Shown here: in pieces, positions 40,256 through 42,004 of the stretch
How positions within the stretch are numbered: position 1 is the stretch's first letter
Layout: every line of letters starts with the position of its first letter
Virus record (IMG/VR): IMGVR_UViG_2634166512_000005
Strand: one strand, 5' to 3'
From: a virus
Lineage: Duplodnaviria; Heunggongvirae; Uroviricota; Caudoviricetes
DNA: 62,539 nt
Made by a program: the position numbers and the translations under genes
Notes under the pieces: generated by a model
Database searches by the model: none
What the model was told of the DNA's origin: nothing
What the model saw: only the letters and a program-made list of their open reading frames with translations

Positions 40256-40789
40256 TTATCTGTCGATTCCCCAGCACGCCAGCGCGCTCTCCTGGTCACG
40301 ACGGGATATCTGGCCGTAACAGTTGTTTGAGCGGATCCGGCAGTCTCTGCCACCGTCCTTAATCCACCAGCGAATCGCTTCACACGCTCCCCTGCGATCG
40401 CCTGCATTAATTCGTTTATAAAACGTCGACGGGAAACACTTACCGGGGCCAATGTTATACGGGCAGAATGACGCAATACCCGCTTTCTGGGGTTCAGTCA
40501 GTGGCACTTTGATGTTTTTCTCCACCCATGCCAGCGCCTTATCACGCTCAATGGCGTTAACCTGGTCGCATTTTTTCTTCGACAACTTCATGCCCGGGAC
40601 GACAGGTTTGCCATCCACCCTGGTGGCACCACGACAAATGGTCCAGATACCCGCACCATCACGGTATGCCGTGGTGTGGTTACCTTCTTTTTCATCCAGA
40701 AACTGGTCGAGAATATCAGGCGCAGGCGCCCCTGCGGCAATCAGCGCCAGAACGGCAGCCGACAGGCTGTATTTGATTTTGGTGTTCAT
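40256..40789 (-). CDS. R: SAR endolysin (phage 21 R-type lysozyme)
   Basis: 177 aa; N-terminal signal-anchor then lysozyme fold. Confidence 0.9.
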   Translation of the reverse strand: MNTKIKYSLSAAVLALIAAGAPAPDILDQFLDEKEGNHTTAYRDGAGIWTICRGATRVDGKPVVPGMKLSKKKCDQVNAIERDKALAWVEKNIKVPLTEPQKAGIASFCPYNIGPGKCFPSTFYKRINAGDRRGACEAIRWWIKDGGRDCRIRSNNCYGQISRRDQESALACWGIDR

Positions 40790-40919
40790 GGATATTTATC
40801 AGGATTTATCGGTTCCGAATCCCTGGATATGTTAAGCCTTCACCCCACCAGTGGTGGGCACTGGCGGGTTCTTAATTTCCCCGGATGATCGTGGATTACA
40901 TTCCACCAGGAGATTACTT

Positions 40920-41551
40920 ATGCTTATCTATCCAGCGGCAGACCTCCGTTTACAGGGACGCAGAGCACAACCATGGGATAAAACAACCACTCATAAATAT
41001 CGTCCCGGTCAATATTATGACTTTCGTAAACACCCGGAACTGATCGAGACACACCTTGAGGATTTTGTTGAATATTCAGACAGACAAGCGATTCAGACCT
41101 TTTTTCTTTTGTTAAGTGGATCAACAGCAATTCATCTGCATTCGAGAGCACGGACTGCATGTTTTCAGGAACACCAAAGGTTGATGAATACGCCCCGGTA
41201 TTTGGTTGCCCCCATGCGTCATCTGGCCGCTTCGAATTTTTGTTTCGCGATACGAAAATAAACCAAAATGAGCGAGCTGTCGGATGGGTACTTAACAAAC
41301 TATCGCTCTACCTTCAGAAAGAACGGCCCGATTTTTGTAAAGGAACCTTTGGCATCGTTCCCCTCATGACGGAATATACCGACTCCGGCGGTAACGAGTT
41401 CACCGGTTATCGTATTTGTGTCTATTTCGATGCTTACGGGAATGGAACAGAGGATACCTGGACTTCTCTCAACATCATGTTTGATGGCCTCATGAAAGCC
41501 ACCAAAAGAATGAGCAATGAAACAATCACTGGCGAGATGCGTCCCCTTTAA
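40920..41551 (+). CDS. opposite-strand cargo gene of unknown function between pinholin and endolysin; needs a frame change in a T-run near 41125
   Basis: ORFs 40851..41261 and 41159..41551 overlap in adjacent frames; RBS AGGAG before ATG 40920; plus-strand terminator at 41576-41598; no family recognised. Confidence 0.4.
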
Positions 41552-41575
41552 AAAATTATCCAGAATCTCACTATT

Positions 41576-41598
41576 TGCAGAGCGCTCTCTGTTTTTTT
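41576..41598 (+). terminator. Rho-independent terminator after the cargo gene
   Basis: CAGAGCGCTCTCTG followed by T7. Confidence 0.5.
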
Positions 41599-41788
41599 GA
41601 ATACGGAAACACTCTGCGAGATTTCTGCTCATCACTTTCCGACAATAATCGTCAAACGCAGCAAACTGCTCATCGCGGCGTTTGTTTGCATCTTCAGAAG
41701 GCATCAGCGCCGACAGTTTTTTATTCAGTTCAGCAATTTCATTTTCCAGACGACTGAAGCGCTGATTCATTTCTTCATGGTTCATCAC

Positions 41789-42004
41789 CTACTCTCCCCG
41801 TGCCGCCTTACGCCGGTCTTCTCTGATTTTGAAATACAGGTTCGTCAGATATGTCAGCAGCCCAAACAGCAGACTCCCCAGCACGCCTATTGCCGCCCAC
41901 TGAGACGGGGAAACCCTGTCCAGCAACTGCAGGAACCAGTAGCCCGTTCCCACCGCTGACGTGGTGTATGACACACCTGTTGTGATTTTTTCCATCTGGT
42001 ACAT
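41789..42004 (-). CDS. S: pinholin (phage 21 S-type)
   Basis: [71 protein letters not shown]. Confidence 0.9.

Follow-up and report, generated by a model that had tools for sequence, protein, structure and literature searches.

A convergent accessory cassette with a putative antisense-overlapping gene pair between the lysis genes S and R of a stx2-bearing phage sequence

The classical morons of lambdoid phages are bor and lom of lambda and gp15 of HK97, single genes with membrane or exclusion roles. A prophage accessory gene accompanied by a small overlapping antisense gene has been described in Staphylococcus aureus phage 80alpha, where the small gene, long mis-annotated, encodes an inhibitor, Ith, which prevents autoimmunity by the prophage defence protein Tha (Rostol et al., 2024, PMC11087260). 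Antisense overlapping genes, among them nog1 and ano, were also reported from EHEC, the evidence consisting mainly of RNA-seq and Ribo-seq of one strain (PMC5960689; PMC9927249), and in the Salmonella prophage BTP1 a non-coding unit antisense to late genes, STnc6030, is expressed in the lysogen and has an exclusion function (PMC7067206). On inserts between the lysis genes S and R, and on the function of the DUF1327/YdfR proteins, nothing was found in the literature.

The locus considered here is part of the window, that is, the whole stretch of 62,539 nucleotides which was analysed (IMG/VR record IMGVR_UViG_2634166512_000005), and over the 1.2 kb compared (40700-41900) it is 100% identical to the Stx2a prophage of E. 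coli RM9387. Its features are collected in Table 1. S bears the PGAP name 'class II holin family protein' and ends with TAG at 41789-41791. R, named 'lysozyme' by PGAP, matches the phage 21 lysozyme 3hde (residues 9-174) as well as RrrD 4zpu, and its Ala/Gly-rich N-terminus, LSAAVLALIAAGAPAP, is a putative signal-anchor-release segment, as expected of a SAR-type endolysin. Of the marks of a phage 21-type cassette, a class II P21-like holin and a lysozyme-family SAR endolysin are present, whereas R does not stand immediately after S. The distance of about 1 kb between the S stop at 41789 and the R start at 40789, noted in the initial annotation, was confirmed and amounts to 999 nt (40790-41788), and GC content is 0.43-0.47 in the insert compared with 0.52 in S and R.

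Table 1. Features of the S-R spacer and its surroundings, with positions in the window, strand and basis of assignment
Feature	Position	Strand	Basis
Minus-strand late region, in the order stx2AB, SASA/nanS-p esterase, S, spacer, R, Rz, Rha-type gene	stx2AB: 44965-46205	-	
S, P21-type class II holin (pinholin)	41789-42004	-	Pfam PF04971 'P21 holin S', 9e-33
N-terminal coiled-coil module of the 161-aa ORF	41570-41785	-	PHROG hits to residues 1-69 only; DUF1327 alignment
B domain (residues ~73-161 and the stop codon of the 161-aa ORF)	41300-41569	-	Alignment A8 to stand-alone ~89-aa B proteins
Antisense overlap zone, A codons 128-210 against B, same triplet boundaries	41300-41551	both	Coordinates, codon register
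Intrinsic-terminator-like hairpin with T7 tail, end of A transcript, inside the minus-strand ORF	41577-41598	+	Terminator scan
Gene A, 3' part, codons 63-210 plus stop TAA (41549-41551), second frame	41106-41551	+	ORF list, alignment
Frameshift site, T6 in the window against T7 in most relatives	41100-41105	+	Alignment, T7 in 22/25 loci
Gene A, 5' part, codons 1-62, first frame	40920-41105	+	ORF list; aligns to residues 1-62 of the intact 210-aa protein
Minus-strand ORF of 124 aa	40924-41298	-	PGAP-annotated solely in T6 copies (e.g. RM9387)
Shine-Dalgarno sequence of gene A, AGGAG	40908-40912	+	Direct sequence reading
Promoter-like element TATCAGGAT-N16-CCnGGnTATGTT, putative -10 TATGTT	40797-40833	+	Conservation, 37 nt
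Leader common to all S-X-R variants, with any cargo	40790-40866	.	blastn and alignment with L003, L004, L015
R, SAR-type endolysin, downstream of the insert	40256-40789	-	Pfam Phage_lysozyme, 6e-25

It had been assumed at the outset that in such cassettes R follows S directly. This applies to some relatives, S and R being adjacent in AU5Stx1 and 4 nt apart in locus L014, yet it is not the rule in E. coli prophages, many of which possess a YdfR/DUF1327 gene after S, often followed by a small ORF on the opposite strand; variation in this slot is known. The sequence bears out the description of the spacer as the site of a cargo gene which runs on the opposite strand and is equipped with an RBS and a terminator of its own: AGGAG lies 7 nt before the ATG, and a hairpin with a T7 tail was recovered by the terminator scan. 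The hexamer ATGAAC indeed occurs twice, at the start of R (40789-40784) and at the start of the ORF right after S (41785-41780). The genes that follow S all begin with ATGAAC, and homology between the mosaics resumes at 41780; the left junction, compared with phages in which S and R are adjacent, thus sits where the initial annotation had placed it. An Rfam search of the spacer gave no match even at E<=1, and the putative 5' UTR folds no better than its shuffles (z = -1.55).

On the plus strand of the spacer two ORFs are present in the window, at 40920-41261 and 41159-41551, which were originally joined across a run of T near 41125 into a product of about 205 aa. Both frames are one gene, here called A, as was then proposed, although the run lies at the position given in Table 1 and the intact product comprises 210 aa. 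A is a genuine, conserved gene and not a chance ORF: full-length homologues of the same length and with 53-65% identity occur in Salmonella and in metagenomes, and an exhaustive HMM search yielded a family of 251 clusters, 183 of them at E<=1e-10, mostly of 200-215 aa and including chromosomal genes of Acidobacteria and Myxococcota. In the plus frame substitutions are distributed over the codon positions in the order 3 > 1 > 2, and a structure was predicted by AF2 from an alignment of 88 sequences with a pLDDT of 94.8 and a pTM of 0.91. The near-invariant polar residues (R15, E47, D48, N69, S73, E76, D79, R104, R110, N115) suggest a defined active or binding site. A is an old, widespread cytoplasmic alpha/beta protein which was captured by lambdoid prophages.

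The statement that the joined product belongs to no recognised family holds for Pfam, PHROG, NCBIfam, PADLOC and PDB, none of which contained a relative; in the first four of these, neither B (see below) nor the 124-aa ORF of the minus strand was matched. The best results from PADLOC-DB 2.0 were fragments at E=0.01-0.045 in two homologues, and P0001 and the 161-aa ORF gave none. Ten longer homologues of A revealed no informative fusion domain, one carrying DUF2934. In environmental bacteria A is widespread as a lone chromosomal gene, which by itself gives no hint of a phage-related function, and its neighbours there include no consistent partner, DUF1415 being found downstream in 2 of 7 contexts. 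A locus search of genome contigs with alignment A3 gave no match, and alignment A6 was too diverse for the design of patterns for locus searches.

In prophages A is always oriented opposite to the flanking late genes, and it occupies several slots: S-R in E. coli, one adjoining the holin gene in a P22-like prophage of Salmonella, one at sodC in a prophage remnant, I-J among the tail genes of 14 IMG/VR contigs, and one at the tape measure gene. Homology to the Salmonella copies is confined to ~40920-41563, essentially the A ORF. Towards R, leader homology ends at 40865/40866 in comparison with L003 and L004 and at 40833 in comparison with L015, all of which carry different cargo, and the block specific to the window among S-X-R phages extends from 40867 to 41641. 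The flanking genes are adjacent in relatives, the insert has its own terminator, and in other phages A is found in different positions, as is characteristic of morons. The spacer is best explained as a convergent two-gene accessory cassette (moron) lying against the late operon.

Upstream of A, and of no fewer than 14 other, unrelated cargo genes of opposite orientation, lies a promoter-like element of which the window contains one copy, against 0.01 expected by chance. In 43 of the 58 loci examined it is present once, on the cargo strand and upstream of the cargo, and its two blocks are invariant across the S-R and I-J slots. Carriers in IMG/VR number at least 120 contigs; about 15 unrelated cargo ORFs, mostly of 65-116 aa, start 55-85 nt beyond the element, and their slots lie ahead of R, tail M, tail L and J. 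Each of these ORFs has a convergent neighbour, a small late-strand ORF that frequently encodes a coiled coil. Among GTDB species representatives the form with the 16-nt gap was detected only in Escherichia, Enterobacter, Citrobacter and Atlantibacter, the remaining matches approximating the number estimated for chance. Both Salmonella copies of A are devoid of the 37-nt element. A generic sigma-70 scan called no promoter upstream of A, the element included. The element is taken here for a putative portable promoter or regulatory module with TATGTT as its -10 box. Readings of the element as an RNA stem or as an IHF, Dcm or alternative-sigma site were rejected by eye, as the variable positions break each consensus.

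The convergent partner of A is the minus-strand ORF at 41300-41785, which encodes 161 aa (PGAP WP_001457151) and consists of two parts. Its N-terminal module, starting with ATGAAC 3 nt after the S stop, is common to YdfR/DUF1327-type proteins and aligns with the DUF1327 proteins of loci L004 and L005 and with the protein of L003; the PF07041 (DUF1327) domain, present in the L004 and L005 proteins, was absent from the 161-aa ORF according to Pfam. The second part, here called B, faces the 3' end of A: residues 80-161 are antisense to A codons 210-129, and the codon of Leu79 is the complement of the A stop. In the S-R slot of E. coli both parts form one fused ORF of 161 aa without a separate start for B. 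In the tail slots B has an ATG of its own, at a distance of 9-21 nt past the A stop and with GGAGAG, AGGAGG, AGGAG or GGAG in front of it, and terminates opposite A codon 128, in L052/L053 one codon off. Over the corresponding A codons all diverged tail-slot homologues keep the antisense frame open. Homologues of B, called as proteins of 84-120 aa, were found in Enterobacter, Yersinia and E. coli only, all of them Enterobacterales, and B has no match in Pfam, PHROG or PDB. The notion of the minus-strand ORF as a fusion remnant is therefore correct with regard to the fusion and mistaken with regard to a dead remnant, its C-terminal ~89 residues being kept open in diverged relatives.

It could be assumed that the cassette is a plain one-gene moron, in which only A is functional and the minus-strand ORF is a truncated YdfR-like gene that stayed open by chance, TTA, CTA and TCA being rare there. 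Several observations agree with this: the ORF shares the triplet boundaries of A, and of the antisense frames it is this aligned one that most frequently stays open by chance, also over long stretches; PHROG hits are limited to residues 1-69; the plus-strand terminator lies inside the ORF; and on tail-slot contigs B was left uncalled by gene callers. However, TTA, CTA and TCA are the only A codons able to create stops in the B frame, and they are far from rare in the remainder of the gene. Relative to all Leu and Ser codons they amount to 88/232 in A codons 1-127 against 4/162 from codon 129 to the end, and all four of the latter belong to the two Salmonella copies. In eight representative non-Salmonella sequences the ratio is 58/147 upstream and 0/109 in the overlap, while other A-ending codons in the same sequences fall merely from 0.32 to 0.21. 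In ten diverged sequences the three codons are absent from the overlap, but they make up 39% of the Leu and Ser codons among the first 127 of these genes. Per-sequence hypergeometric P values extend from 0.066 down to 8e-5.

Synonymous change points in the same direction. Ten pairs have B fully open in both members, and in seven of these synonymous differences at identical residues decrease from 0.53-0.65 upstream to 0.31-0.46 in the overlap; little or no drop was seen in Ec/L051 and L051/L053, likewise open in both, and none in pairs with the Salmonella copies L007, in which B is broken, or L010. That B is broken in L007 means that A is able to exist without B. Together with the ATG and Shine-Dalgarno sequence of B just past the A stop in several independent contexts, these results render the one-gene reading unlikely. 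Taken as a within-gene contrast across related, not fully independent lineages, the patterns are held to show that both overlapping frames are selected as coding sequence, so that one stretch of DNA appears to encode two proteins. We conclude, as far as comparison of sequences allows, that B is a real, selected gene which arose by overprinting on A within the Enterobacterales.

The cassette was found in 133 of 5,426 complete E. coli genomes (~2.5%), in 199 copies, and is nearly invariant among 29 E. coli copies that were compared. Against strain P15-385 the sole length difference of the window is 1 nt, T6 instead of T7, and with T7 the two plus-strand frames become one intact ORF of 210 aa. 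Among the 133 carriers a T7 copy is present in 128 and a T6 copy in 14. The window also differs from the other copies by C for A at 41210, which results in T98P, found in the window only among the 29 copies and affecting a conserved T/S site beside the invariant H99. The copy of A in the window is real but broken, on account of T6 and T98P, unless T6 is an assembly error or a slippage variant, and with the frameshift any function of A is probably lost there. The frameshift lies outside B, which is therefore intact in the window. The 124-aa ORF opposite the 5' part of A, without family hits and shortened to 68 aa in T7 copies, is probably an artefact of the frameshift.

The proviso that T6 might be a homopolymer error of sequencing or assembly, or a reversible slipped-strand (phase-variable) switch, so that A may work in the living strain, has some arguments in its favour. 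A single T of a T7 run is all that separates the window in length from intact copies, T6 is found with two flank backgrounds, frequently in genomes that have a T7 copy as well, and two T6 copies (L035, L062) come from assemblies with many other indels. Against this, the 14 complete genomes with T6 stem from several laboratories and platforms, efficient phase variation would call for a run longer than 7 nt, and the unique, non-conservative T98P next to an invariant His is what would be expected after loss of function. We regard an error or switch as distinctly unlikely.

The reading preferred here, with slightly more confidence than doubt, is that of a convergent cassette in which A is made in lysogeny and the overprinted B late, and of which the window retains an inactive A and an intact B fusion. 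A would be transcribed from the element in the lysogen. As A opposes Q-antiterminated late transcription, its expression presumably belongs to the lysogen and ceases upon induction, when colliding late transcription and the complementary late RNA would silence it. B would be translated from the late transcript, in the tail-slot copies from its own ATG and Shine-Dalgarno sequence, and in the S-R slot of E. coli as the C-terminal domain of the ORF which starts right after S. In that case the same DNA would give one protein in lysogeny and another in lytic growth, the two probably belonging to opposite phases of the life cycle. Like Tha and Ith, A may then exert a function in lysogeny and B be its counterpart or neutraliser in the late phase, and by analogy such a pairing is our best guess. 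Promoter activity, reciprocal expression, antagonism of A and B and a benefit to the host are what we infer from the arrangement of the sequence. A further-reaching version is rather doubtful: A would be an anti-phage or exclusion protein of lysogeny with a new fold family, late expression of the overprinted B would switch A off, and the element would mark a so far unrecognised family of mobile convergent cassettes in the lysis and tail operons of enterobacterial lambdoid phages.

The plus-strand transcript could also act mainly as an antisense RNA to the S-R late mRNA, tuning R and lysis timing or excluding superinfecting relatives, with coding as a secondary matter. The T6 allele breaks A and not the transcript, and it persists in 14 genomes; STnc6030 provides a precedent; and from the occurrence of the same element before about 15 unrelated cargo ORFs in several late-operon slots it would follow that the constant part is an antisense transcription unit. 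A, however, is strongly conserved as a protein, the element is missing from its copies in Salmonella and in non-phage genomes, and an intact copy is kept in 128 of the 133 carrier genomes, for which reasons this reading of the transcript appears very unlikely. A role as antisense RNA in the manner of STnc6030 is still a live alternative, especially for the T6 copies.

RefSeq and deposited phage records omit A and annotate the opposite strand instead. The conception that they are right, with coding restricted to the minus-strand ORFs of 161 and 124 aa, the only ones annotated by PGAP, and with a spurious plus-strand ORF, can practically be dismissed, as it is already contradicted by the 251 clusters of A, Acidobacteria and Myxococcota among them, and its confidently predicted fold, by codon-position variation fitting the plus frame, and by the confinement of the 124-aa ORF to T6 copies.

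A is a conserved gene missing from RefSeq and phage annotations, although ~2.5% of the complete genomes of E. coli carry it, many of which belong to STEC and have it inside Stx phages. A cassette between holin and endolysin could affect lysis and therefore the release of Stx. For the convergent cassette preferred here, the locus offers comparative evidence, and not just evidence from expression, for a long antisense overlap in the same register, and the younger frame, B, may be dated to the Enterobacterales, which is of use where overlapping genes and the de novo birth of genes are debated. The common upstream element hints at a class of convergent late-operon cassettes, whose cargo constitutes a list of candidates for lysogenic conversion, defence or self-immunity.

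With regard to known systems, the locus is most aptly classified as a moron, or a noncontiguous operon, that has an overlapping antisense partner, and its A gene is degraded in the window. It resembles bor, lom and gp15, as generally known, in being an extra gene between late genes that are adjacent in relatives, with its own terminator, a putative promoter, lower GC content and presumed expression in the prophage, and differs from them in the convergent pair with antisense overlap, in the 37-nt element common to unrelated cargo and in the soluble nature of the A protein. With the YdfR/DUF1327 genes between essQ and rrrQ (Qin of K-12 and many lambdoid prophages) it shares the slot after a P21-type holin and the ATGAAC start, and these proteins have, in the middle or at the C-terminus, a coiled-coil module corresponding to the first ~66 residues of the window ORF; in contrast to them, the ORF has B in place of the DUF1327 domain, and Qin of K-12 has no gene on the opposite strand.

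The likeness to Tha/Ith consists in a prophage accessory gene combined with a small, overlapping antisense gene, the small one mis-annotated, and in opposite orientation, which ties the two expression states to the lysogenic and the lytic phase and from which such expression of A and B would be deduced. In contrast to A and B, Tha, a HEPN RNase, is encoded in the cI operon, and a separate promoter serves ith, whereas here the larger gene, A, has a putative promoter of its own and the small B would ride on the late operon; the overlap of A and B covers ~83 codons in the same triplet register, no relation in sequence or fold exists, and the roles in defence and inhibition known for Tha/Ith stand against a pair known from its sequence. 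STnc6030 is likewise a unit antisense to late genes, from which the plus-strand unit of the cassette differs in encoding a strongly conserved protein. Finally, as in nog1 and ano, a protein-coding ORF apparently lies within another gene on its opposite strand and escapes annotation pipelines; unlike in these, the case for A and B rests on comparison across diverged homologues, and the unannotated member is the 'mother' gene.

A 37-nt element, TATCAGGAT-N16-CCnGGnTATGTT, lies within the insert that separates the holin gene S from the endolysin gene R, and recurs in the comparison loci L066-L144. Across this set of enterobacterial prophage loci, about 15 unrelated small ORFs on the opposite strand were found downstream of the element, in operons for lysis or tail genes. 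Each of them converges on a second small ORF, which is encoded on the late strand and in many cases specifies a coiled coil. These element-headed convergent cassettes look like a class not described before.

On the minus strand of the insert, a 'hypothetical protein' was annotated only in cassette copies with six Ts at the frameshift site of gene A, the plus-strand insert gene; in copies with seven Ts this ORF shrinks from 124 to 68 aa, and it is probably an annotation artefact produced by the T6 frameshift. Regarding the gene after S, Stx2_12E129 has the N-terminal module MNHEEMNQRF... in common with the window ORF that follows S and carries a different C-terminal domain of ~150 aa, and hence this gene is a modular scaffold with exchangeable C-termini.

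Homologues of gene A were found in diverse neighbourhoods. In a Salmonella P22-like prophage (L010) the homologue adjoins the holin gene, and at a distance of ~3 kb the interval from Q to the lysis genes holds the Kiwa defence pair KwaA and KwaB; the region with both is an accessory or defence island. A DUF1415 gene directly follows the homologue in two Acidobacteria-type contexts, and was absent next to it in five other contexts examined.

Features of the window and of comparison loci
Feature	Locus	Position	Strand	Remarks
37-nt element	window	40797-40833
Sequence upstream of the R start	window	40790-40810	minus
124-aa ORF	window	40924-41298	minus	PGAP; TTG start
STnc100 sRNA	window	44675-44890	minus	Rfam, 193 bits
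stx2a A and B genes, three tRNA genes upstream (Ile, Arg, Arg)	window	44965-46547	minus
sok antitoxin RNA	window	50789-50963	minus	Rfam, 113 bits
Gene with shared N-terminal module	L003 (Stx2_12E129)	2044-2685	minus
KwaA and KwaB	L010	9618-11257
DUF1415 gene	L054/L055	4606-5172
DUF1415 gene	L058	4633-5238

The stx2a genes downstream of three tRNA genes identify the window as an Stx2a-converting prophage. The STnc100 sRNA is flanked by stx2B and a nanS-p esterase gene. A Hok/Gef gene is annotated near the sok RNA in E. coli RM9387, which has a matching prophage, and the two form a hok/sok module within the prophage.

The start context of R, AAATCCTGATAAATATCC-ATG, is the same in all phages with cargo between S and R, and no recognisable Shine-Dalgarno sequence precedes the R ATG in any of them, whereas in phages with adjacent S and R a GGAG within the end of S serves this function; R translation in insert-bearing phages may therefore differ from that in S-R-adjacent phages.
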